Of a stretch of DNA of 64,000 nucleotides, positions 2,463 to 32,211 are shown one piece after another. The notes below the pieces were generated by a model. That model was not told the origin of the DNA. It searched no databases and saw only the letters and a program-made list of their open reading frames with translations. Both the position numbers and the translations under genes were made by a program. This stretch comes from Candidatus Thorarchaeota archaeon. Its GTDB lineage: Archaea > Asgardarchaeota > Thorarchaeia > Thorarchaeales > Thorarchaeaceae. The stretch's first letter is position 1. Every line of letters starts with the position of its first letter. The DNA lies in assembly GCA_019057475.1 (NCBI GenBank), contig DXJO01000038.1, forward strand, positions 32,001 through 96,000, read 5' to 3'.

Positions 2463-2570
2463 GATGTCACCAACTCAGTTCTTACTGTGCTGTGGACTCT
2501 CGTGCCTTTTGATATGAAGTCCCTAAGAGCCTACCGCTGTTCTGGTTGGAGTTTCATAGGAAGGAGGGGA

Positions 2571-2843
2571 GGCTTACCCCGAAAGCCCGGAGGAATGCTC
2601 GTCATTCTAAACGGAAATCCTCACGGCCCCAGAGCTTGTCAGGCTCGAAAGGGTCATCCGTGGCTGAGTACTGTGAACAGGCGACTCTCGAGTCGTTTGA
2701 GAGTGCTACCGATCCCGCCATGGCAAAAACCGCGGAAACACCGTCTGCCGCCATCGACGCTCTAAAGGCCTCTGACAGTCATGGCAAAGCAGTGCAGCGG
2801 ACTGAAGCTCAGTCTGGAAAGAGGGATAATGTTCCTGTGAAGT
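2571..2843 (+). repeat. Direct repeat copy 1 of the tnpB 3' region (orphan omega-RNA-like fragment)
   Basis: Aligns ungapped to 15883-16155 with about 19 mismatches in 273 nt (counted by eye). Confidence 0.95.
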
Positions 2844-2885
2844 TAGGGTACTATCCTCTTTGCTGGGAACATTGATGTGTGCACA

Positions 2886-3209
2886 TCAGCTATTTGGACT
2901 CTCCTGAGGGGTAATTCTGTAGTAAAACACATTCTTGCCCAAGGTGAACTTAGCAATCAGTCCCTTGTTTTTGAGTCTAGTTAGGGTTCTTCGTATCTGA
3001 TTTGCCGGCTTCCCGACTAGGTTGGATATTTCACGTATGGTATGAGTCGCATCACAAAGAAGATAGACTATCTTCTGTTCTCCCGTCAAGGCATATCTCT
3101 CAGGCTGTGCAGGTGAAATATGCATCTGCAGTAGTGCTGACAGTAGACCCGATATCCTATCTAATATAACCAGCAGCTTATTCTCAAACTCATTGTTTCT
3201 CGATGTCAA
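2886..3209 (-). CDS. Small winged-helix DNA-binding protein (MarR/ArsR-like)
   Basis: TIREISNLVGKPANQIRRTLTRLKNKGLI HTH followed by a beta-wing (NVFYYRI). Confidence 0.7.
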   Translation of the reverse strand: MTSRNNEFENKLLVILDRISGLLSALLQMHISPAQPERYALTGEQKIVYLLCDATHTIREISNLVGKPANQIRRTLTRLKNKGLIAKFTLGKNVFYYRITPQESPNS

Positions 3210-3437
3210 CTTGCTACTTCTCCATAACTCTTAGATCCGTTGATGGCATCTTGAGTGGAATCTAACTGAAACGCCAAGATATGACACCAATAAGGGATAT
3301 TTATGCTTCCTTTGTTAGTCAGAACTAGGCCAATCGTTGTCTGTGTAATTAAGAAATTACTTGGCAGGCACAAACCAGCCGCCATACGATCATTTCAATT
3401 GACTGATTTACAATGCCTCTTAGAGATATGAACATCA

Positions 3438-4268
3438 TCATTTCTTCTTCTTGACGAGCCGGCCCTTCTCGTCCATTACTCCTTTTATGATTCCTATGAT
3501 TCGAAGCAGCATAATCACAGCTGCGTTTGCATTTTTCCTAATCGAAATCATCTTCTTCTTAGTGACGAAATCTACGACGCTATGCGCTGACTCATTTCCT
3601 TTCCTTCGAAGGCCCTTGATAGAAGCCAGATGGTTTTTCGTGAAACCATACTTCACATAGTCACCAGATATCTGCTCGAAGTTTAGAACTAAGGATTTTA
3701 GGGGGAGAAAACGGTTCGTACCATCATCAAAATACATCTTATGTTGATTCGTCGGTTCATACTTAAAGCGTAGAATATCAATTACTAGATTCTCCACCAG
3801 CTTTCTCAGCATGACACGTGCAGAGGAAAATGCTTCGTACTCAAAGCAGGTGTTAATCTCATCGATTAGCAAACTGTATACCTTGTCAACTCTATACACG
3901 TTTTCAATGTCTATGAAGTCAGGTTGCGAAGGCATCTTCCGGCTAGGTACACTAGTTTCCGCTTTTTCTCCGGGCAAATACATTTGTCCGGGAACTACCA
4001 TTGGGATTTCTTGGGCTAGATCCTTGAACTTCTGTGCAGAACGTTTCCTCATCACGAAGACCATAGTTTCTTTCTTGCATAATGGACATTCGACTCTGCA
4101 AATTCCTTTCTGTATATCCTCACCTGACCGACCTATTTTCATCTGGAATTTGCTGTACTCTTCCGGTTTGAAGTAGAATGCATACCACCCATGCTTGTCA
4201 AAAGCCAGTCGGAGATTCCTACCACAGTCTTCAGTTTGACAGACGATAGGAATGACTACTCCGCTCAT
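3438..4268 (-). CDS. Zn-ribbon + HEPN/DUF4145-like protein (putative RNase toxin)
   Basis: N-terminal CxxxxC...CPLC; C-terminal EINTCF..ARVMLRKLVE and RRKGNESAH (RxxxN/H HEPN-type motif). Confidence 0.6.
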   Translation of the reverse strand: MSGVVIPIVCQTEDCGRNLRLAFDKHGWYAFYFKPEEYSKFQMKIGRSGEDIQKGICRVECPLCKKETMVFVMRKRSAQKFKDLAQEIPMVVPGQMYLPGEKAETSVPSRKMPSQPDFIDIENVYRVDKVYSLLIDEINTCFEYEAFSSARVMLRKLVENLVIDILRFKYEPTNQHKMYFDDGTNRFLPLKSLVLNFEQISGDYVKYGFTKNHLASIKGLRRKGNESAHSVVDFVTKKKMISIRKNANAAVIMLLRIIGIIKGVMDEKGRLVKKKK

Positions 4269-4322
4269 GCAATATCACCACAGACAGACAACATCAGCTC
4301 GAATACAACTGCTCGTGTCCAT

Positions 4323-4755
4323 CTACACTGCGGAGTCCATCTTCTTTTCACACTTAAAAATGACTTCTCCTGCCATTTGAAGTGCCCAACAAATCCTATC
4401 AGGCCTGATCGCGTAGTTGTCACCTTCTTTCTCGAATCCGTCAGCGAGGCCTTCCTGTTTACTTGAAAGATATGTCGCAAGAGAGTCAGGATTAATCATC
4501 AATACATTCTGCAACTCATCTTTCGACATCCCTTGAGGATACTGTAACATCAATGCGCATACAATCTTCTGCTTTGCAGTAGCAGTTCCCTCGGGGAACG
4601 AGATTGCAGTCGCATATTGGTCCGATGCCAACATATGTCGCAACCTTGAGCTTAGTTAATCCAATCTCAATTTCTATCAATGCATCCGACCAATTTTCAA
4701 ATTCGCCGACTTGCAGTTCGTAGTTATTATAGAATGCTGAGAACGTCCGCTTCAT
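4323..4755 (-). pseudogene. Frameshifted member of the winged-helix paralog family
   Basis: ORF 4516-4755 matches the N-terminus of 5808-6302 (NWSDA motif), and ORF 4323-4643 in another frame matches its C-terminal wHTH; frame switch near 4620-4640. Confidence 0.7.
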
Positions 4756-5007
4756 TTTGACAGTACCTCCTACATCAGTGCACTACCCCATTTCCTCCAT
4801 TTTAATCTGGCGTATCGTGATGACTACATCATTAACTTGGGAATCCTTCGAGCAAGAAACATCATAGTGAATTGTGAAACGGTGGAGTCGCTTAACATAA
4901 TTACTACTCATGCAAAGATTAGTTGTTATAAACCCGGTCCACTAATGATGGGCGATAATCAAATATCGGTCTTCTTCATTTAATTAGCCTGACTCTGATA
5001 ATATAAC

Positions 5008-5562
5008 TTGGGTTCTCCTGCGAAGGTGATTAAGCGTATGGAAGAGATTGAAACTAAGGGGGTTATGCTGGAAAGAACTGTACGAAACACGATCGTGCGC
5101 ATCACTGCAAAGAACGGCGAATCTCTTGATGAAGCATACAATAGGCTCGCCGAAATATGCCAGAGTATTGAGGATACTGAAGCAGCCAAAGAGCGCGAGA
5201 AGTGGACTGAGGATATGCACCCAGAGGTGGAAGAAGCCACATCAAAAGTAGAGGCTCTCCTTGGTTTGGATGCCAATGAGAGAAGAGGAGTAAGCCTAAC
5301 AGATGAGTATCACATGGTTATACTGTCACTGCTAATGCATTTTGACGAGTGCAAGGGTTCCGTTTCCATCGCCAAGGAATGGAATATTAACAGCGGCAGA
5401 GTTTCACGAGTCTTCACAGCGTCGCGCAAGAAGCATGAGAAGTACAAGGGGCATTTCGAGAAATGCAAGATGGGAGGTTACCGTTTCACTAGAGAAGGCC
5501 TAAATCACGCATTGGAATATGGGGTGTCCGCGATATTGGGCGAAGAGAGTGATGTCGGCTAG
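5008..5562 (+). CDS. wHTH paralog family protein
   Basis: LDEAYNRLAEI N-module; HMVILSLL..SIAKEWNINSGRVSRVF..GGYRFTREGL wHTH. Confidence 0.7.
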   Translation: MGSPAKVIKRMEEIETKGVMLERTVRNTIVRITAKNGESLDEAYNRLAEICQSIEDTEAAKEREKWTEDMHPEVEEATSKVEALLGLDANERRGVSLTDEYHMVILSLLMHFDECKGSVSIAKEWNINSGRVSRVFTASRKKHEKYKGHFEKCKMGGYRFTREGLNHALEYGVSAILGEESDVG

Positions 5563-5807
5563 CAAGCTCTAGTTTCGTGAGTAGGTCATTTCCCGATTAG
5601 ATGTCGGAAGCAAATAGTTCGCGTTTCTTCATACCTAAATTGGAGTGTTAAGCATTCAATCTGGTTTCAGAGTCATGCTGCCTAGGATCCCCCATTGACA
5701 TCTCCTCTCATTCGATACCAACAAAGCTAATGCTGATGATTTGATGAAAAAGATTTAGTATAGGTTCGGTACTCTCAGCCAACGCGCAAGCAAAGGACCA
5801 TGGTAGT

Positions 5808-6302
5808 ATGACAAAGGAAGAGGAATCTATAGATGACAGTGGGGACTGGGTAGAGCTGCAGATCAAGCATGGCAATACCATACTGTCAGTGGGTGGACAC
5901 AACTGGTCTGACGCCATAGCAAAGGCAGCTCTTGGAAAGATGAAATGCAGAATTGCTGCAGTTGCAGGTTACGCAACAGAGTACAGTTCGGAGCTGAAAC
6001 AGTGGGTCATTGTGTTTGGAGAACCCATAGGCCAAATCAAGAGTCGAATTGCACTAGCGTTGCTGTTAGCTTTTCCAGAAAGGCTCTCAAGGGAGGAGTT
6101 GGTGAAGATGGTCGACATCAAGCCAAATCGGATTAGGGAGTATCTTACCAACACGAAAAAAGGCGTCAAACCCCACGTAGACGAAAACAAGAAGTCCGGC
6201 ATTATTCTGAATACCAAGGGCTACTCATGGGCGGTTGGGATTCTGGAATCAATTGAAGAAGCTAGATCCCACGAATCGAAAGGTGATGATATTGAGCAGT
6301 GA
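5808..6302 (+). CDS. wHTH paralog family protein
   Basis: SRIALALLLAFPERLSREELVKMVDIKPNRIREYL..IILNTKGYSW. Confidence 0.7.
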   Translation: MTKEEESIDDSGDWVELQIKHGNTILSVGGHNWSDAIAKAALGKMKCRIAAVAGYATEYSSELKQWVIVFGEPIGQIKSRIALALLLAFPERLSREELVKMVDIKPNRIREYLTNTKKGVKPHVDENKKSGIILNTKGYSWAVGILESIEEARSHESKGDDIEQ

Positions 6303-6765
6303 TCAGACAGATTTGAAGATTCGATTGAGTAGAACGATGAATAACATCCAGATTGAAGTCTGGCTAAGCAGCGAAGATGAGTTCAGAGAAGGCTATGCGC
6401 TTCTCAGACGACTCTGCGAAAGGGCAGAATTTGAGGAACTCAGACTAGACCTGGGTCAATTTAGAGTCAGAGATGATGAAGGACACAGAATAGCTGAGCA
6501 AGTTACTGAGGGTACGCACAGAGTAGCTCTATCACTCCTTGATAGTTGGCCAGATTCCAAGAGAGTCACCGACATTCAAGTTGAAACCGGACTATCACAG
6601 GGACACGTTTCGAATATACTCGAGGGCCGTCGAGGCGACGTGGGACACTGGTTCGAGAAGGAGAGAGATCTCTGGAAGCTATCACCCATTGGAGTGAGAG
6701 CCATTGTCGAAGAGGTCGTTCCAGCCCTGTTTGAGCAACAACGTTCTGGAGGGGGAACTCAATGA
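6235..6765 (+). CDS. wHTH paralog family protein (true start may be slightly downstream)
   Basis: HRVALSLLDSWP..DIQVETGLSQGHVSNIL..WKLSPIGV..VVP. Confidence 0.75.
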   Translation: MGFWNQLKKLDPTNRKVMILSSDQTDLKIRLSRTMNNIQIEVWLSSEDEFREGYALLRRLCERAEFEELRLDLGQFRVRDDEGHRIAEQVTEGTHRVALSLLDSWPDSKRVTDIQVETGLSQGHVSNILEGRRGDVGHWFEKERDLWKLSPIGVRAIVEEVVPALFEQQRSGGGTQ

Positions 6766-7286
6766 ACGCCAACGAAGAACAGGAGTTGACAGTCGAGATT
6801 GAGAAGTCTAGGAGCGGCACGAAGATTCGAGTTGTGGGAATATCCGCAAGTACGGACGAAGCGCAATTCGATCAAGCATACAAACTAGCGGATGAACTTT
6901 ATAGGAGAATCGAAACACTCGACCTTGAAATTGAATCGGAAAACAAAATCCAACAGGCCAAGAATCAAGTTTCTCATCTTTGGGTTCAAGAGGAAAACAA
7001 ATGGAAACTCTCCGCTTCTGTTACGGAGGCATCACACCGAATCGCACTGTCACTCCTTAGAAGCTATCCGAAGTGCATAACTCAAGCAGATGTAATCAGA
7101 GAAACAAACATAGCTCAGAAGACTGTCAGCAATCATCTAGGAGGACGAAAAAAGGAGGTTCGCATATATTTCTCGAAATGTGATGGCGGTTATCAACTAA
7201 GCCAAGATGGACTCAATTGGACCATCACGAAGGTCATTCCCAAGGCCATTGGCCAAGAGATGCCGAATGAAAGGAAAGAGGAATAG
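6762..7286 (+). CDS. wHTH paralog family protein
   Basis: FDQAYKLADELY N-module; HRIALSLLRSYP..VIRETNIAQKTVSNHL..GYQLSQDGLNW..VIP; ATGA overlap with the previous gene. Confidence 0.75.
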   Translation: MNANEEQELTVEIEKSRSGTKIRVVGISASTDEAQFDQAYKLADELYRRIETLDLEIESENKIQQAKNQVSHLWVQEENKWKLSASVTEASHRIALSLLRSYPKCITQADVIRETNIAQKTVSNHLGGRKKEVRIYFSKCDGGYQLSQDGLNWTITKVIPKAIGQEMPNERKEE

Positions 7287-7289
7287 TTA

Positions 7290-8264
7290 ATGACTGATTC
7301 CGACAAACAAACCTTCTTGATCAGGAAGAAATCAGCAGGACTGGAAATCGAAACACGAGTTGATGAGAAGAATCTCGATAATGCATACCTAAAATTGGAG
7401 GAATTATGGGCACATTTCAGTCAATTGGATGAAGAGTTGGAACCCAAACGAAAAATTCGCGATCTAGTGAAAGAATGTCAGAAGTACTGGGTTCGGAAAG
7501 ATGGGAAACGGTACCTAGCGAAGGACGTTGCTTCTGTATCTCATCGAGTCGGACTATCTGTGCTCGATGGGGGCAACAAAGGAAAGAGCCTGAAGGCCAT
7601 TGCCGACGAAACCGGGTTGTCTTCACCCCTTGCGCGGTATCACCTAACTGACGCCAAGGGAGCATCAGGGTGGTGCTTACAAGATGAAAAAAGACATTGG
7701 AAACTAACACCGGAGGGATTGGAGCACGTTACAAACATAGTAATTCCGTATTTACAGGGCCGTCACGGAAATGAACTCCACATGATTCTGAAATGGATGA
7801 ATAACAGAATATACAAGGGTCAGTTTGATAGCTGGATACTCGGCAAGGTCCAAGGAAAGGTGGACAAAACCAACTTCTTGGAATATGCCGTTGGATTGCT
7901 CCTATCAGCTTTAGGTTTCCTAGTATACCAAGTGGGCATGTATAACGATAGATTCGATATCGTTGCCTGTCCGCCAGATGGGTCTATCATGCTGGTATGT
8001 GACTGTACAACAGGTTCAGTCAGAAAGAAGTCATCGGGTCTCAGCATAGTCGTGGAAGAACTCAGGACCGAATTTCCAGAGATGCACGTAGAGGGTGTTG
8101 TTTTCACAACGGAAAGAATTAGTAAGACTGATCGAAAGGATTTGCTTAGCGACAAGATTGGGATTGTTGATGCAACTCAGATCAAGGAACTCCTCAAGCT
8201 AGCAAAATCCGATCGAAATCCCGAGCTGTTGTTTGATGTCATGAGGAAGAAGGAAACGCGATAG
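7290..8264 (+). CDS. wHTH paralog fused to a C-terminal Mrr-like restriction endonuclease domain
   Basis: LDNAYLKLEELW N-module and wHTH, then FLEYAVGLLLSALGF..RFDIVA..LVCDCT..GVVFT..IGIVD (PD-(D/E)xK-like fold, with a non-canonical third residue). Confidence 0.65.
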   Translation: MTDSDKQTFLIRKKSAGLEIETRVDEKNLDNAYLKLEELWAHFSQLDEELEPKRKIRDLVKECQKYWVRKDGKRYLAKDVASVSHRVGLSVLDGGNKGKSLKAIADETGLSSPLARYHLTDAKGASGWCLQDEKRHWKLTPEGLEHVTNIVIPYLQGRHGNELHMILKWMNNRIYKGQFDSWILGKVQGKVDKTNFLEYAVGLLLSALGFLVYQVGMYNDRFDIVACPPDGSIMLVCDCTTGSVRKKSSGLSIVVEELRTEFPEMHVEGVVFTTERISKTDRKDLLSDKIGIVDATQIKELLKLAKSDRNPELLFDVMRKKETR

Positions 8265-8319
8265 CTATTCTATGCCCAAACGCTCCATAAACAGCTTTGG
8301 TTACTCACTCTTGCATTGT

Positions 8320-9204
8320 TCACTCACTTGGGCGCAGGACAGAACTCATGTATTCCCTTACTCTCTCCGTTTCGAAGAAGTAGTACAATCCATCATCTGA
8401 TAAACGGAAACCTCTCTTGCATTTTGAGAAGTATTGAGAGTGGTCATGCTGTATCCCCGTTATGATTCGGGAAATGGATGACTTAACCAGACCAGTTTCC
8501 AAGGCGATTTCTTGCAGAGTCCTGCAATCGGGGTACGCTCTAAGGAGTGAAACCATAATCTTGTAAGGGGGCTTTGACTCTTCGGACTTTCTGCCAAGAG
8601 CTTCAAGCGAGCCATCATTTACATAGATAGACCAGTGACCGTCTTCCCTGCGCCAGAGATTAGTAGTCCCCTGTTTTGCACGCTTAATCATTTCATCGAA
8701 CTCTTCAGTTACATAGTCAATGGATTGAACCGGATGTTTCTCTGGAAGGGCATTGAGGACACGCAGAATCTGGTCCTGAACCTTCCGTGGGCTCTTCACA
8801 GATGTGGAATTCCCAAAAATTCTCTTGTATTCGATGACGTAGTAGCTTTTAGTGTCGAAAGGAAGTTCTCTTATCTTTTGAGTGAGTAGAATAAATGGCT
8901 TGCTCAAACCCCATGCAAGACCTAACTCTAGGAAGACATTCGGATTCGAGCCTGACAGGTCAGCAATAATCGCCCTAGATTCTTGTATGTTGGCACATAT
9001 CTTGCACCAAATCTCGGGTTTGCTCAAGTCGGAATCGGCTCTATGAACAGTCCAACCTGGCAAAGATTTCAGAACATCGTGAAATAGGCTCTGGGGCGCC
9101 TCCTTCTCTCGAAAGGGCATAAGCACAAACAGTTTGCGTGGATCATACTTCACGTTGACACCACACCGCTCGTAGTTCTTCGGGCATATGATTGGTATAC
9201 TCAT
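8320..9204 (-). CDS. Nucleoside 2-deoxyribosyltransferase/TIR-like domain fused to the family wHTH
   Basis: LFVLMPF..RAD..IQESRAIIADLSGSNPNVFLELGLAWGLSKPFILL; C-terminal SLLRAYP..EIALETGLVKSSISRI..GFRLSDDGL. Confidence 0.75.
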   Translation of the reverse strand: MSIPIICPKNYERCGVNVKYDPRKLFVLMPFREKEAPQSLFHDVLKSLPGWTVHRADSDLSKPEIWCKICANIQESRAIIADLSGSNPNVFLELGLAWGLSKPFILLTQKIRELPFDTKSYYVIEYKRIFGNSTSVKSPRKVQDQILRVLNALPEKHPVQSIDYVTEEFDEMIKRAKQGTTNLWRREDGHWSIYVNDGSLEALGRKSEESKPPYKIMVSLLRAYPDCRTLQEIALETGLVKSSISRIITGIQHDHSQYFSKCKRGFRLSDDGLYYFFETERVREYMSSVLRPSE

Positions 9205-9294
9205 AACTCTACACTTTCTCGGAAGAATCAGCTGCAGCTGCCCTGCTTCCCGTGCCCGATTCCCATGAATCGCATGTTAATTTGCCACTCAAGT

Positions 9295-12200
9295 TCAATG
9301 AGTGACACTTCCTAGAAGATGCTCAATCTTGGAGATGAGTCCATCATAGTTTTCTATCCTCTCCTTTGCTTCCTCATCACTTCCGAAGTACGACTCCACA
9401 ATCTCTTGAATCAGGCTTTCAGCATGGTCAAGTGTTCTAGCAACCCCGCTCTGAGGAGGTGTTGTCGCAAGGATCCAGTTGTACACCTGTTCCCCTGTCT
9501 TGTTGGATCTAGCACTAAGCTGAATTTCTGACTTGAACTTGAGCACAGTACAGACCAACTTCTCTTCGTCCATCTCAAGATAGCTGCCAGCCCGGATTGC
9601 CCTCAGGCCTAGTTCTCTCACGATTCGTCGACTCTCTCTGAACACCATGCCCTCTCTAGTCGTGGGGTCTGGAACGAACTCAAACGCGAACTCGCACCAT
9701 GCATTTCCGAGAAATGCACCTCCTGCCAACATCATTGCAGATATCTCTGAGTCGTCAAGTCCAGTCTTGGTCAGTCCAGATAGGCTGGTATCCTTGTCCC
9801 CATCCGAGAGCTCTACGCGCCAGCATGCACCATGACACTCCATTTCTCCGCTGGCTATGGGACATAGCTCCTCGTCGTGAGTCACAACCAGCGTTTGATG
9901 AGCGACCTCTCGGCTCGTGAGGTCCTCTGCGGTTGATGGCAGGGTCGTGCGAAAGCGGACGTACGGAGTCCTCTGCTCTACGTAGGGCCTCAGAATCTCC
10001 AGTGCATCATAATCAATGTCATCATAGGGGTTCCATGTCAGATAGGTTTCTGTGTCTTTCAGACTCTGCAGTGGAAGACCATCGACTATTGGACGTCGAA
10101 GCAGCGCGAGGAGCTCAGACGTGTGCTGGATGGACCAGCTCTCGATCAATTCGTTTCCATCAGCTCTATTGAACTCAATCGTGTAGTGGTCGTCATCCAC
10201 GTCCAGTGTGCATTTCGTCGAAACACAAAGGCTGAGTGACTCCGATATATCCTCAAGTACTCCTTGCACTCTCTTCCCTAGTGCCCGCGGAAATCGAAAC
10301 CATTCCGGCAGTAGTGGGAAGTCCTGTTCAGGCATTGTTGTGATCTGAAGTCCGCGGATGCCAGCAAGCGTTTCTCCTCTCCTCCTTATCGTGGTGAGCT
10401 TGCCCAGAGGCGTCCAATTCTCTTCATCGCGAAACCAGAAGTAATCTCCCCCGGCGGACCTATGCACGATTACGTCGTACGTGGCAGTTGCACCTACATG
10501 CTTAGACAAGCACAACGCAATCTCATCCTGACGGATTGCAGTCCAGCTTACTGTTTGCTTGGGCACAAATGGTTCGCATCCAATCCATACCCCAATCAGC
10601 ATTTTCCGACGGTCGTAGGGGTTCTCTATCGCCAAGCAATACTCCGGAGTTTCGTGCTCTTCTGACAGCACCAGAATCTGACCGTAGCTCACAGTACTCA
10701 GTTCAGGAACGTTCAGTGAGGTCATGGCTTTAGCCCGTTTCGCAAGTCCTGACCACACAGCTCTCAGATCGAGTCTAGGTGTGACCTCTTCTGACTCAGA
10801 GTTCATAAGGACGAATCCCATCTGCATGATTTGCCAAGACTTGAGAATCCTCCATAGCTCCGATAAATGCCTGTCAGCCAAAGTTGGGAACTCCCTAGTG
10901 AGCCCCAAGAGCAACAGGAAGAGGTAGTTGCCAAGAGAAACGGACAGGTACGGTCGCACACTGAGAAGATCCAGCAGCATCTCCCTGTCCTGTGCTCTCA
11001 GTCCCTCTACCAACCGGCTATCTCGAACCCACTGGAGCGTCGCCCATACTGGCTCAGAAACCGGACTCGTCTGCAAAAATCTCACGATGTCATCAAGCGC
11101 CTCGATGTGACCCTGTTTTCCATCGCCAATCGAAATCAATTCATCGAGCTCATCGAGGAACTGCGACCAGCTCGACCCGTCCTTCTCATGTCCCACTTGC
11201 CGAAGGATCCTGACGGCCTGACGAAGCCGCCTGAGTTCAAGCCGCGTGGCTCTCTCGATATCATGGCCAAAGCGCAGAGTGGCCTCTATGGGAGGTCTGT
11301 AGATACTCGCGCCCGTGCACTCTCGATTACTGTCCTTCCTGTAGGCACGTTGATGTGTGATGCTGTTCCTTGGCAGCAACGCAACACTCTCAACGAATGC
11401 TCTCCCGTGTCCCACTGTCTGCATTCTTGTCCTGTATTTCAGAAAAGGAGCTCCAGAAGGCCTGCTCTTCGAGCCATATTCAGACAGTGGCACGACATGA
11501 ATTTGCCGTCCCCCAGTATCATCCGCTTTCTGTACAATGCTCTCTGACAGATACTGCTTCAACTGAGGCACGAGCTCGATGGAGTCCCGAAAGAAATCAT
11601 CTTGCATCTCTGAATTGTGCATGACATCAGCAGACCGAATCACCGTTCGTCCTCTTTCTCCTTCTTGAGCGGATGAAACTGATGCTCGCCTTGGCTCATT
11701 CCAGAACCTTGGAGACCAGTTGTGAAGCGGTAGTACCTCTACCATGTTGAAAGAGATACCATCAATGTCCTGTCTTATGATGACTCTGAGGTCATCGAAC
11801 GCAGATGTCAACTGGCCTGATGCATACGGTCGCACGGGGAGATTCCATACGATCTCTGTGACGAAGCGGTTGAGTTCGGAACCTTGGAAGAACGGCTCCA
11901 TTGTCCTTCTCTGATAGGATGCTGAAGTACCTTCTGAGTTTCTAGGCCTGTCAAACCAGACTACCGTACAACCTGCCTCATTCAACTCAGCCGCGATTAT
12001 GCGTCGCAGCTCATAGAGTGCCGGCCGTAGTCGTTTTGGTGTGCAGTCATCCAGTACATCCCAGCCACTGACCACAACAACCCTACCATCTAGAGCATCC
12101 CATTCCTCTCCCACGAGCTTTGCTATCGACAGGTCCCCGATTCCTCTGAAGAGGAAGTCCTGTATAGCTGACGAGGCATCGCTGAACATGACTGCGCGGA

Positions 12201-14235
12201 AGAACTCGCGCATGTGGTCACTGCCTTGATCTGACCTGAGTCTAGTCCTAGCCAAAGACTCGGCTCCAAAGTCACCTGCCAAGTCCAACCACAGCATTTC
12301 AGAGTGATCATTCTCCTGTTGGAGGCCGTGGATGAGCTCAAGTCCGTGCCAGTACTTGGCTATCCAAGCAGCAGAGGGCCCTGATCTAGACGCGGAGTTC
12401 ACACTCAGATAGAGAATGAAGCGGCCTCTCGCCTTACCATTCTCCTCTAGTGGGCTGCGTTGCTCAACACCCCACAAAGGCCAGCCCTTTTTCCCAATCT
12501 GTTTCAACTGGTCAGCAGCTATGCCATGCACGATGATAGCAAGTTTCAGCCAATCCCGGGTTCCGTCATTCAAGACAACTCCCACTGGTCTGCTGAGATG
12601 CTCTTTGAGAAGGACTGAGGCGTTCTCACACAGAGCTCGCGTGAGTCGCCATAGTCTGGGACGTACCACAGAGGAGTCCTGCGAAGTGTCAAGGACCACA
12701 GTACCGGTCAGAGGCCGCACCACTGAACGGTCCTCTGTGATTCTCACATACTCCGTAGCAAGACCTTCGGCATAGGCCTCGAGCTGTTTCATGCCGTACC
12801 CCGTTGGCGTTCCGGCAACAGACGCATTCCACTCGGCGTTCGTGAGCCCGCGCTTTCTGAGAACAAACTTGGGAATAACCTTCTGTCCGTGTTTCTTGGA
12901 ATCCTTCTTCTCAGCTTTAATCTCCCAATTGAAAGCAGTCTTGCTCTTGATGTCAAAGACAGCCACGGGTATCCATACGGTCAGTTTGCCCGGCACTCTC
13001 GGGTTCTGAATCACATGACGTCTGAACATCACGAGATCCGCCCGCCCCTTCCCTAGGGAGGTTTCCACAGGGATTTCTGCTGCAAGGAGCCACTGGTCAC
13101 CCTCCTCCACCCAACGGTCACCGTTGAAGACCACCGACTCCAAGTCGTATGGCTGGACGAGTCCGTTAGTCATCAACCTGTGCCATCTGATGCCGTGCCA
13201 TCTCGCCCTCCGCATAACTTCCTTTTGTAGCCACTCACCGTCCTCATCCCGAAGGATGCCACGTTCGCATAGGTCCTTGAGGAAGTCCGCCCAGGCCTGA
13301 CGAATCTCACTCTCGGAGGCTTCCTCTTCCGGATACCTCAACTGCGTGACCTGGTCCAGGAAGAATGAAAGGTCCCACCTAGCCCTCGACTCCTCAATGG
13401 ACTGTGTCAGTGATGGCGCCCGCCCATAGTGTGTCCCGTAAAACGCCTCGATCTCCTGGACTATCTCTCGGAGAATCCAGTTCGCGTCAAGCTGTTCACT
13501 ATCCCTCCGCCCACTTCTTCTCGAACGCTTGAACCCCCGCTTCCCGCTCTCCTTCGAGGTGTAGAGATACTCGAGGAACGGTGACAGCCGCCATATCAGC
13601 AGGCCAACATACCTGCGCGCGTTGTTCATCGGCACGTCGTTGATGAAGCACTTACGACACAGTTCGAAGATGTGGGCTCTCAGCATGTCCCCGAAGTCCA
13701 GCTCCGCAAGGACAGTGTGAGCCACCTCAACCCATGGATAGTCGCTCCCGCCTTCGTACCCTGCAATCCACCTCTTGCCGCGTCGACCTGCTGTCTTTGG
13801 CTCTGGAAACGGAAACCTTGTCACGACCCAGTTCCTCAGTTGTGCGCCAGCCATGTTCAGTAGTCTGTTGAGCGGCCCAATCCTCCCCTTCCTCTCGTTC
13901 TGTATCCGCTTGTACTCCCTGTTGCCGTAGCGCGCGGTGGTTTCCCAGATCATCTTGTTGAAGTTGCGACGCATGTGTTTCTCGACGTTTGTAATGTGAG
14001 AAAAGTCGGGTTTGCCACCGCGTCTGCTCGCGCGCCACTTGCTCAGTGCTTCGGTCCACTGCCTTTGAGTGCTGGCATAGACATCCTCGATGCTCTTGAT
14101 CGTGCGCTCGCGGAAGAGGTCACGCAGTGCCGAAAGACCGTTGAGGTACGCGCGAGCTATGGCCTGCGCTGGGTCGTGGGGGTATGGCCTCTGTTCACTC
14201 TCCTTGAGGTTATCCATCGCGGGCACGCGTATCAC
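9295..14235 (-). CDS. 1646-aa giant hypothetical protein with a PD-(D/E)xK (RecB-like) nuclease motif
   Basis: Long uninterrupted ORF; EIPV..GRADLV..VFDIKSK..QLEAYA motif. Confidence 0.7.
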   Translation of the reverse strand: MIRVPAMDNLKESEQRPYPHDPAQAIARAYLNGLSALRDLFRERTIKSIEDVYASTQRQWTEALSKWRASRRGGKPDFSHITNVEKHMRRNFNKMIWETTARYGNREYKRIQNERKGRIGPLNRLLNMAGAQLRNWVVTRFPFPEPKTAGRRGKRWIAGYEGGSDYPWVEVAHTVLAELDFGDMLRAHIFELCRKCFINDVPMNNARRYVGLLIWRLSPFLEYLYTSKESGKRGFKRSRRSGRRDSEQLDANWILREIVQEIEAFYGTHYGRAPSLTQSIEESRARWDLSFFLDQVTQLRYPEEEASESEIRQAWADFLKDLCERGILRDEDGEWLQKEVMRRARWHGIRWHRLMTNGLVQPYDLESVVFNGDRWVEEGDQWLLAAEIPVETSLGKGRADLVMFRRHVIQNPRVPGKLTVWIPVAVFDIKSKTAFNWEIKAEKKDSKKHGQKVIPKFVLRKRGLTNAEWNASVAGTPTGYGMKQLEAYAEGLATEYVRITEDRSVVRPLTGTVVLDTSQDSSVVRPRLWRLTRALCENASVLLKEHLSRPVGVVLNDGTRDWLKLAIIVHGIAADQLKQIGKKGWPLWGVEQRSPLEENGKARGRFILYLSVNSASRSGPSAAWIAKYWHGLELIHGLQQENDHSEMLWLDLAGDFGAESLARTRLRSDQGSDHMREFFRAVMFSDASSAIQDFLFRGIGDLSIAKLVGEEWDALDGRVVVVSGWDVLDDCTPKRLRPALYELRRIIAAELNEAGCTVVWFDRPRNSEGTSASYQRRTMEPFFQGSELNRFVTEIVWNLPVRPYASGQLTSAFDDLRVIIRQDIDGISFNMVEVLPLHNWSPRFWNEPRRASVSSAQEGERGRTVIRSADVMHNSEMQDDFFRDSIELVPQLKQYLSESIVQKADDTGGRQIHVVPLSEYGSKSRPSGAPFLKYRTRMQTVGHGRAFVESVALLPRNSITHQRAYRKDSNRECTGASIYRPPIEATLRFGHDIERATRLELRRLRQAVRILRQVGHEKDGSSWSQFLDELDELISIGDGKQGHIEALDDIVRFLQTSPVSEPVWATLQWVRDSRLVEGLRAQDREMLLDLLSVRPYLSVSLGNYLFLLLLGLTREFPTLADRHLSELWRILKSWQIMQMGFVLMNSESEEVTPRLDLRAVWSGLAKRAKAMTSLNVPELSTVSYGQILVLSEEHETPEYCLAIENPYDRRKMLIGVWIGCEPFVPKQTVSWTAIRQDEIALCLSKHVGATATYDVIVHRSAGGDYFWFRDEENWTPLGKLTTIRRRGETLAGIRGLQITTMPEQDFPLLPEWFRFPRALGKRVQGVLEDISESLSLCVSTKCTLDVDDDHYTIEFNRADGNELIESWSIQHTSELLALLRRPIVDGLPLQSLKDTETYLTWNPYDDIDYDALEILRPYVEQRTPYVRFRTTLPSTAEDLTSREVAHQTLVVTHDEELCPIASGEMECHGACWRVELSDGDKDTSLSGLTKTGLDDSEISAMMLAGGAFLGNAWCEFAFEFVPDPTTREGMVFRESRRIVRELGLRAIRAGSYLEMDEEKLVCTVLKFKSEIQLSARSNKTGEQVYNWILATTPPQSGVARTLDHAESLIQEIVESYFGSDEEAKERIENYDGLISKIEHLLGSVTH

Positions 14236-14483
14236 TCGGGCATTTTGTAGGGTTATAGCCTAATAAAAGCGCGGTCTTTTCTCATTCTTTCCTCTTACTC
14301 TGGCTTGAAATCTTCGAAGTTAGAACCCGAACAGGTTCCTTTATTCAAATAATCTTCATAGATTTATATGATGTCAGTAGTAAGAAAGTGTGGAGGTTAT
14401 CACCCGACTTCCGTAGAAAGATGTTGAGTGAAAACCCTCTGACCAGAAACAGGTCGGAGATTTATATGGTACGGTGAACTTGA

Positions 14484-16280
14484 GTGGGTCTCTCCAAGGG
14501 AATAGTAACAAGTGTCAAGGTCCCGATTCGTTGGGACTCTATGACCAAACGGCAGCAAACTCGCCTTTCCCGAATCACAAGCCGGGATACTAGGGTGATT
14601 CGTGCCTTCCTTGGAGTGATTGCACGTCACGAGAAAGAACTTCTTGTCGGTAAGAAAAAGAAGAAGATCAGCGGTGCAAAGCTTGAGAAGCTGACCCTGA
14701 CTGCTACAAGATTCAAAGACGCATCTAAGAACCGAACCACAGTTCCCCACGACTTCAAGAAACGATTCCCGAACATATCGCTGAATGAGCTTCAGGAGTG
14801 CAGACAGGTGGCCGCTGCAATGTGGCAGAGCTATCTCGAACTTGGGGGCAAGCCTCCTCTCCATACTCATGGTTACAGGCCGCGCAAGCTGCCTCGGTAC
14901 ATCTATACTCGAAGGTTCAAGATAGTCTATACTCCTGAGAAAGAGATCAAGCACTGGCTCAGGCTGATGGACTCCCTCGACTCTGAAAAGACAGAGGGAC
15001 GATATCATGACTATCTGATGGTTCCTCTCAATCCCTCTTCCTATCATCTGAATAGGATCAACGAGGGCAAGGTGACGTCACTTCGGCTTCTGAAAGATAC
15101 CCGGAAGAAGTGGTGGGTGGTGTTCGCTGTACGCGTGGATGTCCCCGCGGTTGACAACAGCTCGAAGCCACCAGCAGTGACAGGCATAGACCTAGGGATC
15201 AACAAGGCAGTCTGTTCGGTAGTCTTGACTCAGACTCGTGTCAGGTTCGTGGGATACTTCACGCAGCCTGAGAAGGTCAAGCGAATCAAGCGGTACGATG
15301 AGATGGTCGACTCTCTTCAGAGAGAGATGAACACCAGACTCAACAACGGGCAGTCAGCAGATGGAGTCATCCAAAGACTTCGCGAGCTGAGCGGGCGACG
15401 TAACCGAATCAGTATCGACCACGACCGGGTGCTTGTCAGGCGGCTCACTGACCACATCTTGAAGTTGTCAAAGAAGTACGACCTGTACGTGGCGATTGGC
15501 AAACTGACCGGGATTCGGAAGAGTGCCAACAGGGACAGCAAGAAACCGAAGGCATTCCGGGCGATGGTCGGACGGTGGTCTTTTGCAAGAGTCACCAATG
15601 CGTTGAGGCAGAAGCTGTCCGAGAGCGGCTGGAAAGTCAGTGGTCGTGATTCCCGATTCATTCCGGTCCGCGAGTACTGGACTAGCCGAGTCTGTTCCAA
15701 GTGTGGGCACATTGGAATACGCCCGAAGCAGTCTGTCTTCATCTGCCATACCTGCGGTCACAAGACCAATGCCGACAAGAACGGCGCCATCAATATCGCA
15801 AGGCGCCTCATTATGCTCATTCCTTCACTGAAGGATGAGAAAAGACTAGGGAGTTGGCTTCATCCTCACGAAAGAGAGGGGTGGCTTACCCCGAAAGCCC
15901 GGAGGAACGCTCGCCGTTCTAAAGGGAAGTCCTCACGGCCCCAGAGCTTGTCAGGCTCGAAAGGGTCGTCCGTGGCTGAGTACAATGAGCAAGCGACTCT
16001 CGAGTCGTTTGTGAGTGCTACCGATCCCGCCATGGTAAAAACCGCGAAAAAACCGTCTGCCGCCATCGACGCTCTAAAGGCCTCTGACAGTCATGGCAAA
16101 GCAGTGCAGCGGACTGAAGCTCAGTCTGGAAAGAGGAACGATGTTCCCTTGAAGTCTAGCGAAGCCCGTGTCATAGCGTCGGCGTGGAACCCGATGTATG
16201 CTGGCGACAGTCGTCACGGGAAGGGTGGAACGCGTGGGTTGAAGGTTACCGAGGGTGTTCACTCACTTTCTGAAACTTGA
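14484..16280 (+). CDS. tnpB: TnpB/Cas12-family RNA-guided endonuclease with rearranged RuvC-II and a long C-terminal extension
   Basis: RuvC-I GIDLG; VAIGKL (G at the usual E); downstream REYWTSRVC; zinc finger CSKC..CHTC; RuvC-III NADKNGAINI. Confidence 0.9.
   Translation: MGLSKGIVTSVKVPIRWDSMTKRQQTRLSRITSRDTRVIRAFLGVIARHEKELLVGKKKKKISGAKLEKLTLTATRFKDASKNRTTVPHDFKKRFPNISLNELQECRQVAAAMWQSYLELGGKPPLHTHGYRPRKLPRYIYTRRFKIVYTPEKEIKHWLRLMDSLDSEKTEGRYHDYLMVPLNPSSYHLNRINEGKVTSLRLLKDTRKKWWVVFAVRVDVPAVDNSSKPPAVTGIDLGINKAVCSVVLTQTRVRFVGYFTQPEKVKRIKRYDEMVDSLQREMNTRLNNGQSADGVIQRLRELSGRRNRISIDHDRVLVRRLTDHILKLSKKYDLYVAIGKLTGIRKSANRDSKKPKAFRAMVGRWSFARVTNALRQKLSESGWKVSGRDSRFIPVREYWTSRVCSKCGHIGIRPKQSVFICHTCGHKTNADKNGAINIARRLIMLIPSLKDEKRLGSWLHPHEREGWLTPKARRNARRSKGKSSRPQSLSGSKGSSVAEYNEQATLESFVSATDPAMVKTAKKPSAAIDALKASDSHGKAVQRTEAQSGKRNDVPLKSSEARVIASAWNPMYAGDSRHGKGGTRGLKVTEGVHSLSET
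15883..16155 (+). repeat. Direct repeat copy 2, inside the tnpB 3' end (probable omega-RNA scaffold region)
   Basis: Matches 2571-2843; hairpins with a compensatory change between the copies. Confidence 0.9.
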
Positions 16281-16598
16281 AACAGGCCGGTGCATGCAGC
16301 CGATCGTATCTCCCGTGAGGAATCAAAGTGAAGCAGTTAGTGATTCTCACAAGTACTCGCTATGTAGGTAGCCCAAAGTCATCGCCTTTCCTCCTCTCGG
16401 AGTGCTCTGCTTCGGTACCACTCCTAGCGGCTGAAATGAAGGTTTCTCCCTTAATGTGTCCACGGTAACAGTTCACTTTCCGAGTGGTCCAATCATTAGA
16501 ATCAGTTTACCTTTAACAGCTACCGAATTCACATCTGAAGAATTATATGTCATGCTGAATCGACTCCACCAGCGCTCTGCGCCAGCAAGTGATTTAGA

Positions 16599-17009
16599 AT
16601 GCCCCCTAAGGATATGAACGTCATAATTTTTGGATGTATGCAGTGCTGTTACGCTGCAGCGGACCTAGCGGGCACGATGAAGTTACAGTACGACGTGACG
16701 AGCCGGCTAATCCGCATGCCGTGCACCGCGCGCCTGGACATCAACTTCATCCTGAAGGCGTTGCAGGAGGGTGCGGACGGCGTGCTGATTGTTGGCTGTC
16801 ATCCGGGAGACTGCGCGTTCAAGACCGGCAACCTAGGGGCAGAGCGACGCGTCAGATTCGCAAGGAAGCTGATTGGCCAACTGGGCCTGAACGAGAATCG
16901 TGTGAAGATGGTGTTCGTGAGCGCTGCAGAGGGCGACCTGTTCGTCAAGCACGTCAACGACTTCGCAGATGAGATCAGGGCGATAGGGCCAAACCCGATA
17001 AGGCTCTAG
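16599..17009 (+). CDS. mvhD: Methyl-viologen-reducing hydrogenase delta subunit (MvhD/FlpD)
   Basis: CMQCCYAAADLAG, RMPCTAR, GADGVLIVGCHPGDC, VSAAEG motifs. Confidence 0.92.
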   Translation: MPPKDMNVIIFGCMQCCYAAADLAGTMKLQYDVTSRLIRMPCTARLDINFILKALQEGADGVLIVGCHPGDCAFKTGNLGAERRVRFARKLIGQLGLNENRVKMVFVSAAEGDLFVKHVNDFADEIRAIGPNPIRL

Positions 17010-17052
17010 ACGGCAAGCGTTAAACAGAAGCGAAGCCTATGCACCTCGTTGA

Positions 17053-17463
17053 CTAATATCTTCTGACATCAATTCCGACTATTTTCTCATAGTGACGGTC
17101 TTGAGTGATGATTGTGGAGCATCCATTTGTGAAGGCAATTGCGGCAGTCAGACAGTCATTGACACCTATTGGCTTGCCAGATCTCTCCAATTCTGTGTAG
17201 ATTCTGCTGGCACGGTCTGCAGCCTCAACGTCAAGATTCCAGATAGTGATTCTGGAGAGTAGCCTTCTAACAGCCTGTTCTTCGGAAGGGATTCGTCCTC
17301 TGACATCACATCCTCTGAATAGCTCGAATGCATTCACACTTGTACTGGCAAAATGGAAGCCCTCCGACTTGAGCCTGAGATACTGTTCTTGAGCCTTGTC
17401 GACCCCTCTCAGGAAATCGATAAGGAACGCAGTATCAAGGCATGCAAATGTCAATGTGACCAA
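17053..17463 (-). CDS. vapC: VapC-type PIN domain toxin
   Basis: CLDTAFLID..SVNAFEL..G.PIGVNDCLTAAIA..IITQDRHY. Confidence 0.9.
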   Translation of the reverse strand: MVTLTFACLDTAFLIDFLRGVDKAQEQYLRLKSEGFHFASTSVNAFELFRGCDVRGRIPSEEQAVRRLLSRITIWNLDVEAADRASRIYTELERSGKPIGVNDCLTAAIAFTNGCSTIITQDRHYEKIVGIDVRRY

Positions 17464-17663
17464 GCACCCCAGATCTCATCGAGGTCCTCGAATAGGCTTT
17501 CTCTCTCTTCATCGCTCATTGATAATATCCCAAAGAGGTCCGAGATATCGTCAACAGGACCTAGGAGCCGCAAAACGACATCACTGAAGGACTCTCTCTC
17601 TCTTTTCACTCTGCGAAGACGGTCGTAAGCCTTGTCGCTTAATGAGATATTCTTGTAACCCAT
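17451..17663 (-). CDS. vapB: Archaeal VapB-type antitoxin
   Basis: MGYKNISLSDKAYDRLRRVKRERESFSDVVLRLL; overlaps the vapC start. Confidence 0.85.
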   Translation of the reverse strand: MGYKNISLSDKAYDRLRRVKRERESFSDVVLRLLGPVDDISDLFGILSMSDEERESLFEDLDEIWGAWSH

Positions 17664-17772
17664 GGCAATCATCTGTGTATTCATACACAGAAACACAGAT
17701 AAATGCCGCGACTTGCACCCTAGTGCGGAGGTTGTTCCGCTATTCTGGATGCGCATCACTTTTCGCAATACA

Positions 17773-18139
17773 ATGTATGTACGCTGCAGCGGACCTAGCG
17801 GGCACGATGAAGTTACAGTACGATGTCACGTGTCGGCTAATCCGTATGCCCTGCACCGCGCGCCTGGACATCAACTTTATTCTGAAGGCCTTGCAGGAGG
17901 GGGCGGACGGCGTGCTGATTGTCGGTTGTCATCCCGGAGACTGCGCGTACAAGACGGGGAACCTGGGGGCAGAGCGACGCGTCAGATTCGCAAGGAAGCT
18001 GATTGGCCAACTGGGCCTGAACGAGGGCCGAGTGAAGATGGTGTTCGTGAGTGCGGCGGAGGGCGACCTGTTCGCGAGGGAGGTCAACGATTTCGCTGAC
18101 GAGATCAGGGCGATAGGACCTAACCCTATTAGGCTCTAA
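17773..18139 (+). pseudogene. mvhD: Second, 5'-truncated mvhD copy lacking the QCC codons
   Basis: Near-identical protein to 16599-17009; ATGTATG|TACGCT junction versus ATGTATG-CAGTGCTGT-TACGCT in copy 1; unrelated sequence upstream. Confidence 0.75.
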
Positions 18140-19120: not shown

Positions 19121-19179
19121 AGGTCAATGACTTCACTGACGAGATCAGGGCGATAGGGCCGAACCCGATAAGACTCTGA
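19121..19179 (+). repeat. Third copy of the mvhD 3' end (VNDFTDEIRAIGPNPIRL-stop)
   Basis: Near-identical to 16953-17009 and to the end of copy 2. Confidence 0.9.
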
Positions 19180-19484
19180 ACTCTAGAAGTCAGCAATTGA
19201 TTCTTCGACATGCAGTTAGGGTTGAGATTCGAGAAATGTGGGCGGAGCGAAACTGCTCCACTCCACAGCTCTCTTTCAGTAATCCAATTCCGAACGCAGA
19301 TATCGTGGAACAGCTCAGCTGGGTTCGGACCACCTCTCCAATGAATACAGAGCTAACAGCTCACTCAGAATATAGTTGGAGTAGACTTGTCGGATACCCC
19401 CGTCAATGTATTCCGATAAGCTGCAATCCTTATCAGATGCCCTCGTAGTTTGTATACTAGCAGGTCTGCATAAGGGGCGCTCAC

Positions 19485-25517: not shown

Positions 25518-25556
25518 TTCAATTGCCTTCCTTTGCAGTGATTAAATTCGCTTTGT

Positions 25557-25608
25557 TTGTGGTTCAGCCCTAATGGGCCACATCCCTTGCGGACGTATCC
25601 GCCAACAC
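25557..25608 (-). promoter_or_regulatory. Structured 5' leader of rpl15e (K-turn-like)
   Basis: GCGGA-UACG-UCCGC hairpin, then AGGGAUGUG-GCCC-auua-GGGC-UGAACCACAA. Confidence 0.5.
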
Positions 25609-31362: not shown

Positions 31363-32211
31363 GTGGAGAAGTGCATCCTGTTGATTGTTGCAGTGGCTAG
31401 TGGAAAGGGTGGTACAGGCAAGACCACCGTGGCAGTAAATCTTGCTCTTTCAATCGGAAGTGCAAGGCTGCTTGATTGCGATGTTGAGGAACCGAATGCG
31501 CATACTCTGCTTCATCCTGCAGACATAGAATCAGTTCCCGTACTATCTCCAACCCCAGTGATTGATTCTGAGAAGTGCACATTATGTGGCAAATGCGCTG
31601 AATTCTGCGAGTTCAACGCACTCTTTGTAGGAAAAACAGACGTTCTTGTCTATGAGGAACTCTGTCATTCTTGCGGTGGCTGCACACTTGTTTGCCCTGA
31701 GAAGGCTATCACCGAAGTCGGAAGGCAGGTCGGTGAAGTACACTCAGCTGACATTGGCGATATTAAGTTGGTCTATGGCGCCTTGAAGGTGGGAGAACCC
31801 ATCGCTACCACTTTGATTAAGGCAGTGAAGAATGAGATAGATCCAAAGGCTATCAATATCCTAGATGCTCCACCAGGAACTGCCTGCCCTGTGATCGAGG
31901 TCATGAGGGAGAGCGACTACGTGATCCTCGTTACAGAACCAACGCCCTTCGGACTTCACGATCTCGCGATGACTGTCGATGTAATTCAGAAACTGGGAAT
32001 TCCATACGGTTTGATAGTGAATAGAGCTGGCATTGGCGACGATAAGGTTCGCGCGTACTGTGCAGAACAAAATATACCAATACTTCTTGAGATTCCCTTT
32101 GACAGGAAGATTGCCGAGTTGTACTCCAGAGGAGTGCCTTTTGTTCTGGAGATGCCCGAATGGCCAGAGAGATTCAGGGCTGTATTCGAAGATATCAAGG
32201 AGGCGCTCTAA
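31363..32211 (+). CDS. MinD-superfamily P-loop ATPase with ferredoxin insert
   Basis: SGKGGTGKTT, DCDVEEPN, two CxxCxxCxxxC motifs, EPTPFG. Confidence 0.92.
   Translation: MEKCILLIVAVASGKGGTGKTTVAVNLALSIGSARLLDCDVEEPNAHTLLHPADIESVPVLSPTPVIDSEKCTLCGKCAEFCEFNALFVGKTDVLVYEELCHSCGGCTLVCPEKAITEVGRQVGEVHSADIGDIKLVYGALKVGEPIATTLIKAVKNEIDPKAINILDAPPGTACPVIEVMRESDYVILVTEPTPFGLHDLAMTVDVIQKLGIPYGLIVNRAGIGDDKVRAYCAEQNIPILLEIPFDRKIAELYSRGVPFVLEMPEWPERFRAVFEDIKEAL

Follow-up and report, generated by a model that had tools for sequence, protein, structure and literature searches.

A giant Cas1-like protein divergently paired with TnpB in Thorarchaeia: a candidate RNA-guided element directed at alleles of mvhD

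Introduction

The Cas1-like protein aCas1 was reportedly introduced by Makarova et al. in 2020. Asgard loci in which aCas1 is associated with TnpB have been described as the groups Cas1H-Asgard-1 and Cas1H-Asgard-2, and the main text of that report, to which our comparison refers, proposed aCas1 to be a transposase (Altae-Tran et al. 2023, PMC10691335). The window analysed here (the whole 64,000-nt stretch of Candidatus Thorarchaeota archaeon DNA, positions 32,001 to 96,000 of contig DXJO01000038.1 in assembly GCA_019057475.1) has an Asgard host, a Cas1-like protein next to tnpB and the GTTCACTCA motif after a variable stretch, and its relatives likewise comprise two TnpB groups. Because of this combination of host, Cas1-like domain, linked tnpB and GTTCACTCA motif, the locus is identified, by its sequence features, as a member of the Asgard aCas1-TnpB group of that publication.

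The locus differs from the published account in several respects. The main text of PMC10691335 gives no target, replacement gene or allele avoidance, and suggests the variable stretch before the motif as the guide, whereas the target-matching guide found here lies ~25 nt after the motif. Its description also differs from the window locus in the second guide that we found upstream of tnpB. The gene pair is thus already published with its function left open, and what is new, set against that main text, is the mechanism; a literature search, chiefly of openly accessible papers, found no description of targeting by this gene pair. For this mechanism the window supplies the named parts, being the guide, the TAM, the naive and resistant alleles, the junctions and a probably self-regulating guide. 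We hold, with slightly more conviction than doubt, that TnpB would cut a naive host allele and that the giant protein would integrate an island whose own copy of the targeted gene is resistant.

Results

The giant aCas1-type gene occupies 9295–14235 on the minus strand and encodes 1646 aa from a GTG start (the database call uses an ATG six codons downstream, yielding 1640 aa). The open reading frame of the original prediction was real, and every motif quoted from it was found in the translation. The GC content of the giant (0.535) and of tnpB (0.533) was indeed higher than the genome mean (0.483, with an sd of 0.019 per 5 kb), and the value of the giant was not attained by any 5-kb block of the genome. 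Named homologues are Ca. Thorarchaeota proteins of 1,500–1,800 aa, and the family is present, often in multiple copies, in 51 of the 87 genomes of the class Thorarchaeia. Sequence searches with the giant and its domains against Pfam, NCBIfam, PADLOC and PDB yielded no match, and neither did a related-loci search. A lone remnant of its last 146 codons, the DNA of which is 81% identical to the window copy, was seen at G000:C51:93259-93735.

The predicted PD-(D/E)xK nuclease with its QxxxY motif was located at residues ~370–520 of the giant, and its residues E387, D400, D/E428, K430, Q484 and Y488 were conserved in 92/92 homologues. In the structural model this domain follows the order helix-three-strand-helix-strand, and motif and secondary-structure order together support its assignment to the RecB/Cas4-type PD-(D/E)xK nucleases. 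Searches with the domain against Pfam and PDB gave no hit, an Atlas search revealed only weak leads (0.83–0.85) to UL24, PDDEXK_3 and PDDEXK_9, and no conserved Cys was present in the domain alignment where the four Fe-S cysteines of Cas4 were looked for. The predicted fold of residues ~595–830 matched the RecA/RAD51/KaiC core, with Foldseek at E 5e-7 and VIA at Z 11.1. The P-loop domain proved as degenerate as had been suspected, with the Walker A Lys position being Pro620 in the window copy (Lys in only 17/92 homologues) and the Walker B Asp position being Ser723 (Asp in 37/92).

The remaining ~1000 aa had been called unrecognised, which held for the ~650 C-terminal residues (without a domain match, and blank in an Atlas search) and did not hold for the N-terminal 250 aa. 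When the predicted structure of residues 1–370 (pLDDT 81.6) was compared with 48,161 chains, the best 12 were all Cas1 or casposase (Z 9.4–12.9), followed by a next chain at Z 6.3. The best match was 8flj_A (Z 12.9, rmsd 3.9, 177 aligned residues) and the casposase 6opm was also among the matches (Z 10.9), with Foldseek in weak agreement with Cas1. Residues E85, N123, H173, D183 and R186 were invariant in 92/92 homologues and, from their order and the fold, E85 (or E107), H173 and D183 would correspond to E141, H208 and D221 of Cas1. In the model of the Cas1 catalytic helical domain (residues ~10–250), residue 7–10 is aligned to residue 80–114 of the Cas1 hits, suggesting that the N-terminal beta-sandwich domain of Cas1 is absent from the giant, although a displaced equivalent may be located elsewhere in it. 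Canonical Cas1 was not reached from the giant by sequence search, and ordinary Cas1 was not among the 132 clusters (at 50% identity) gathered with a profile of the N-terminal domain. The missing sequence link to canonical Cas1 and the apparent lack of the beta-sandwich domain both weigh against our favoured model. Judged by the structural model, the giant carries a diverged Cas1 catalytic domain, which the original prediction had overlooked together with the island boundaries and the guides.

The tnpB gene (14484–16280, plus strand) starts 248 nt from the giant on the opposite strand, in line with the ~250-bp divergent promoter region that had been proposed, and the putative scaffold RNA extends over its final ~150 codons. 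Both the RuvC triad and the zinc finger of TnpB were found. The RuvC site is rearranged (D236/E397/D431, with Gly at the canonical RuvC-II position), and its three residues were conserved in 31/31 TnpBs. A dead TnpB, as the RuvC-II Gly might indicate, was rejected as a reading in view of the invariant E397, and TnpBs of this rearranged RuvC-II class are considered likely to be active (PMC10691335). The window TnpB represents type A (Gly at RuvC-II plus the invariant substitute Glu), while the 700-aa type B has a canonical site and IS607-like ends.

Linkage of the homologues to tnpB, which had been set beforehand as a refutation test alongside the conservation of the nuclease residues seen above, was observed as a divergent head-to-head tnpB in 97/105 Thorarchaeia loci with enough flank (48/48 and then 49/57 loci chosen by the giant alone), including 5/5 full-length giant copies of this genome. 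This linkage held at 30% identity, with the divergent spacer fixed at 150–270 nt. The proposed co-travelling module of an RNA-guided nuclease and a mobility protein was therefore the right kind of reading, given the linkage and the invariant residues, and is qualified by partner swapping. Indeed, giant and TnpB lineages exchange partners, with the target going with the TnpB clade, so that the two appear from their sequences to travel as a module and not as a strictly co-evolving pair.

Most of the linkage exceptions belong to a subfamily of giants of 1,410–1,430 aa (L100, L103, L111, L117, L128 and L135), in which a divergent tnpB is missing and the giant is followed by a RadA-like paralogue, sometimes with two further genes behind it, one of 230 aa and then one resembling tnpB. 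An IS607-type tnpA adjoins the giant in L020 (G000:C53:742-9286), L076, L077, L079, L086 and L111, and in L020 the guide start is duplicated over 11–13 bp upstream of tnpA. No tnpA was found at the window locus.

Ordinary TnpB homing could in principle account for the element. The giant would then be defence or selfish cargo that travels as a passenger, and mobility would be provided in trans, whether by IS607 serine recombinases, by recombination of the host or by other means. Type-B elements do end like those of IS607, several having tnpA next to the giant, and solo tnpB copies persist at mvhD. A passenger role is nevertheless difficult to align with the 97/105 linkage at 30% identity across a fixed 150–270 nt spacer, with the invariant Cas1 and nuclease residues, or with the absence of tnpA from the window locus, and we consider it quite improbable. 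Integration by the giant, which we favour, has to face part of the same evidence, as the IS607 tnpA or RadA paralogue beside some giants could be the mover, and as solo tnpB genes without a giant are found at mvhD (L220, L222).

The element is part of a 14.3-kb island that splits the host gene mvhD. A displaced 5′ piece of the host gene (codons 1–10; 3413–3443, plus strand; sharing 25/31 nt with the intact copy) marks the left junction and a displaced 3′ piece (codons 14–136; 17768–18139, plus strand) the right junction, and the island therefore spans from ~3444 to 17767. Such a left junction had been expected under the insertion model before it was located, at 3413 in the window and, as 5′ mvhD pieces of 10–12 codons, at four other loci (L057, L093, L231 and L234). 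In about a dozen genomes, a truncated mvhD that starts at codon 12–14 was present downstream of the intact gene. An intact mvhD (FlpD) is located within the island (16599–17009, plus strand).

Codons 11–13 of mvhD are lost, the island ends are not conserved, and neither conserved terminal repeats nor a target duplication were found at the island junctions; near the stop codon of the giant, no consistent terminal repeats or target duplications were found either. The missing repeats and duplication, unlike the situation in known Cas1 integrases, count against our favoured model. Where flanking repeats like those of the published Asgard aCas1-TnpB loci were looked for, a 15-bp inverted pair was seen around tnpB, together with an exact 13-bp direct repeat (8317–8329 and 16256–16268) that brackets the 294-aa gene, the giant and tnpB. 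Neither is at the island junctions, and the left copy of the direct repeat coincides with the point where homology to L093 ends.

The left cargo (3444–9204, GC 0.449) comprises a HEPN-like 276-aa gene (motif recognised by eye), winged-helix paralogues, a 324-aa gene and a 294-aa TIR/deoxyribosyltransferase-like gene. From 4323 to 9204, a run of related small winged-helix proteins with an RIALSLL-like motif is accompanied by the TIR-like and HEPN-like genes, possibly as an unnamed defence cluster. The right cargo holds a PIN-domain gene (17053–17463, minus strand). A remnant of an older copy (2563–2843, plus strand), corresponding to the tnpB 3′ end and scaffold at 93% nt identity, and an mvhD tail at ~19125–19180 probably stem from an earlier insertion round, with the allotment of the mvhD 3′ pieces to insertion rounds being not certain. 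In a close relative (L094:7058-9554) the element directly adjoins the tnpB remnant, and the segment corresponding to window 2673–9270 is absent.

Non-autonomous derivatives of the C42 element (at the end of G000 C18 and in C21, C34, C37, C38 and C2) retain the left part and ~450 bp of the scaffold, between unique flanking sequences. A 30-plus-copy repeat near these derivatives was considered as the left end and rejected, as it proved to be an IS607-type miniature element in its own right. This miniature element, ending in GGCAACGG, occurs at ~39 places in G000 and breaks many contigs. Elsewhere in the window, a leader RNA of ribosomal protein eL15 (Rfam RF03144) is located at 25556–25602 on the minus strand.

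A putative omegaRNA scaffold (15880–16290, plus strand, with an approximate 5′ limit) includes an anti-repeat (16018–16026), the GTTCACTCA motif downstream of tnpB after the variable stretch (16257–16265) and a terminal repeat (16280–16290), all on the plus strand. The terminal repeat covaries with the complementary segment ~240 nt upstream, being the anti-repeat, and the folding energy of the scaffold was not significant (z –0.97). In the window copy, the terminal repeat has a C where close relatives have a T, weakening the predicted pairing with 16021–16026, and this T-to-C change may impair the homing guide of this copy, a point against our favoured model.

The first 13–17 nt after the terminal repeat form a conserved stretch corresponding to the guide. 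The homing guide of the window (16291–16303, plus strand) is antisense to codons 11–15 of mvhD in other strains, which it matches exactly, and shows three wobble mismatches to the resident mvhD. The resident protospacer (16630–16642, minus strand; flanked by a TAM-like GCAC at 16643–16646) is found on the other strand at a distance of 327 nt, still inside the island.

Guides matched to their own flanks only revealed no enrichment because their own alleles are mismatched, and a cross-locus test resolved this. When the 32 guides of 26 mvhD loci were compared with their own allele, none matched perfectly, two had one mismatch and 30 had mismatches at 2–3 of 13 positions, while 28/32 had a perfect 13–18 nt match to the allele of another locus. 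Under permutation over 23 mvhD loci, ~10 guides would be expected to have at most one mismatch, and random pairing is rejected at P 5e-5 to 2.5e-4, a significance inflated by the non-independence of related genomes. Variation among mvhD guides is almost confined to wobble positions, and the putative TAM in this clade is NCAY. Across 70 elements, 21 guides (18 after subtraction of three spurious ones) matched the cognate neighbour gene, as opposed to 0/210 shuffles; their targets include tRNA-Lys, tRNA-Asp, tRNA-Arg, 16S and others, and for about half of the elements the guide target was not found, which counts against our favoured model. Based on these sequence comparisons, guide-directed and allele-specific targeting of mvhD appears highly probable.

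In the 16S-linked clade, the four separate target sites have GRAT as a common TAM, and at most resident sites a small insertion breaks the match after 2–10 nt. Such small insertions in 16S rRNA at the four guide-targeted sites (seen in L017 (G000:C9), L055, L056, L058, L060 and L097) are probably introns. One L097 guide seems to follow an intron-containing 16S allele, and one 16S guide that had been read as intron-targeting matches 16S proper. The tRNA-Lys elements L019:13868-14025, L071 and L087 form a cycle in which the guide is nearer to the tRNA-Lys D-arm of another genome than to its own. The guide of L088 spans the exon junction of the adjoining intron-containing tRNA-Asp, and L080/L133 have a perfect guide match, preceded by bases that differ from those of the L088 allele. 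Alleles of mvhD with a non-synonymous change at Met14 (to Asn or Gln) were observed in L096 (G021:C2) and L231, and L096 carries a guide with the Asn spelling of codon 14.

Cas1 and a RecB/Cas4-type nuclease constitute an adaptation pair, and the giant might in turn be a guide-acquisition module (Cas1 plus Cas4-like) that adds repeat-guide units behind tnpB as a proto-CRISPR, with the island spreading by host repair of TnpB breaks. Some loci indeed contain 2–4 tandem repeat-guide units that differ in spelling or site, and the L096 guide follows a non-synonymous escape allele. However, Cas2 is absent, the repeat measures only 7–11 nt, only the first 13–17 nt of each unit match anything, and every traced guide targets the neighbouring host gene. 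Moreover, gene conversion does not leave a host gene split by a long stretch of non-homologous cargo, and guide acquisition seems to us an unlikely role for the giant.

The divergent spacer harbours a small crRNA-like unit with a hairpin (14396–14468, plus strand). It contains a 15-nt segment (14425–14439) complementary to 16251–16265 at the scaffold 3′ motif, the same repeat as the terminal repeat (14447–14457) and a second guide (14458–14468), the 11 nt of which are identical to a stretch of the TATA box 98 nt upstream (14360–14370). This promoter TATA box region (14356–14370, plus strand) begins with a TAM-like TCAT (14356–14359). A self-promoter match of 10–15 nt was present in 47/49 type-A elements, at a distance of 90–101 nt, with a mean of 12.4 versus 4.6 for the promoters of other elements. 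The self-promoter guides comprise 30 distinct sequences, and T(A/C)AT precedes 44/47 of their targets. Clade by clade, this promoter motif is consistent with the TAM used for homing, being TCAT in the six mvhD elements scored and TAAT in the 16S elements. The second guide likely serves autoregulation of the element's own promoter, and a functionless preserved duplication would be hard to reconcile with the covariation. The 10–15 nt promoter match overlaps the homing-guide range, and our favoured model does not explain how cutting would be confined to one of the two targets, which counts against it.

In a CAST-like explanation, TnpB would only bind by means of its short guides and the nuclease of the giant would open the target, so that insertion would be guided without being TnpB-cut. 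Guides that match only 13–17 nt and an 11-nt self-target tolerated at the promoter would fit this explanation, as would the break inside the protospacer at positions ~5–14 from the TAM, since a typical TnpB cuts farther from the TAM. The arrangement also resembles the delocalised homing guides of CASTs (PMC11656645). Nevertheless, the catalytic triad of TnpB is fully conserved, the strictness with which the resident allele is avoided points to damage, and a tight interface would hinder the free swapping of giants and TnpBs of two families, making the CAST-like route rather doubtful in our view. This explanation, guide acquisition and our favoured model all share the guide-directed and allele-specific targeting of mvhD.

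Discussion

In our favoured model, TnpB together with its long scaffold RNA and 13–17 nt guide would recognise the naive mvhD allele next to an NCAY TAM and cut it. The giant would act as the insertion machine, with its PD-(D/E)xK nuclease trimming the ends, its Cas1-like domain joining the donor segment into the break and its dead RecA fold possibly providing a DNA-binding scaffold. Because the island brings a complete and synonymously different mvhD, host function would be kept and the occupied site would be immune. The second small RNA would direct TnpB to the element's own promoter and probably limit expression. The system would resemble a naturally occurring, RNA-guided form of gene drive with a load of 14 kb.

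More tentatively, and with somewhat less confidence than doubt, we propose that these elements represent a new, Tn7-independent class of RNA-guided integrating systems. Through an active TnpB and a multidomain integrase derived from Cas1, they would put >14 kb at a guide-chosen site, swap the broken gene for a resistant copy, self-regulate by a second trans-pairing guide and gain guides, as a TnpB-to-CRISPR intermediate built on Cas1. Such an allele-chasing drive would also explain the small 16S rRNA and tRNA introns in Thorarchaeia, and would supply a selective cause both for these and for the wobble diversity. If true, natural RNA-programmed insertion of large cargo by means of a Cas1 relative would join CASTs and IS110 bridge recombinases as a third route, and would give a direct view of TnpB, Cas1 and multi-guide arrays coming together.

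By the features compared, the element is not a casposon, a CAST or an IS200/IS605 element. It shares with casposons a Cas1-family protein as candidate integrase, but the island genes include no PolB, terminal inverted repeats and a target duplication are missing, a small loss occurred at the junctions, and a multidomain giant takes the place of a casposase of 350–400 aa. Like CAST I-F and V-K with a delocalised homing crRNA (PMC11656645), it combines a short self-targeting guide at an adjacent conserved host gene with large cargo, but TnsB, TnsC and TniQ are absent at the window locus, the nuclease is apparently active, and insertion occurred inside the protospacer without duplication, whereas CASTs have a dead effector and insert at a fixed distance with a 5-bp duplication. 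The TnpB with its 3′-overlapping scaffold RNA and downstream guide recalls the restorative homing of IS200/IS605 and IS607 TnpBs, whereas a TnpA is absent here, and the guide is internal, retained in the island and directed at an allele instead of consisting of the flank that abuts an excision scar.

By analogy, the element would work most like a free-standing homing endonuclease with an RNA guide. As judged from the sequences, its apparent recognition of the recipient's version of a conserved gene and sparing of the donor's version parallel the intronless or collaborative homing by free-standing homing endonucleases of T-even phages, in which neighbouring DNA also spreads without sharp ends and introns can ride along (PMC13565253). 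It differs from the T-even endonucleases in that recognition would be RNA-guided, in that the target gene is split and replaced instead of converted, and in that a dedicated Cas1-like protein is always present.
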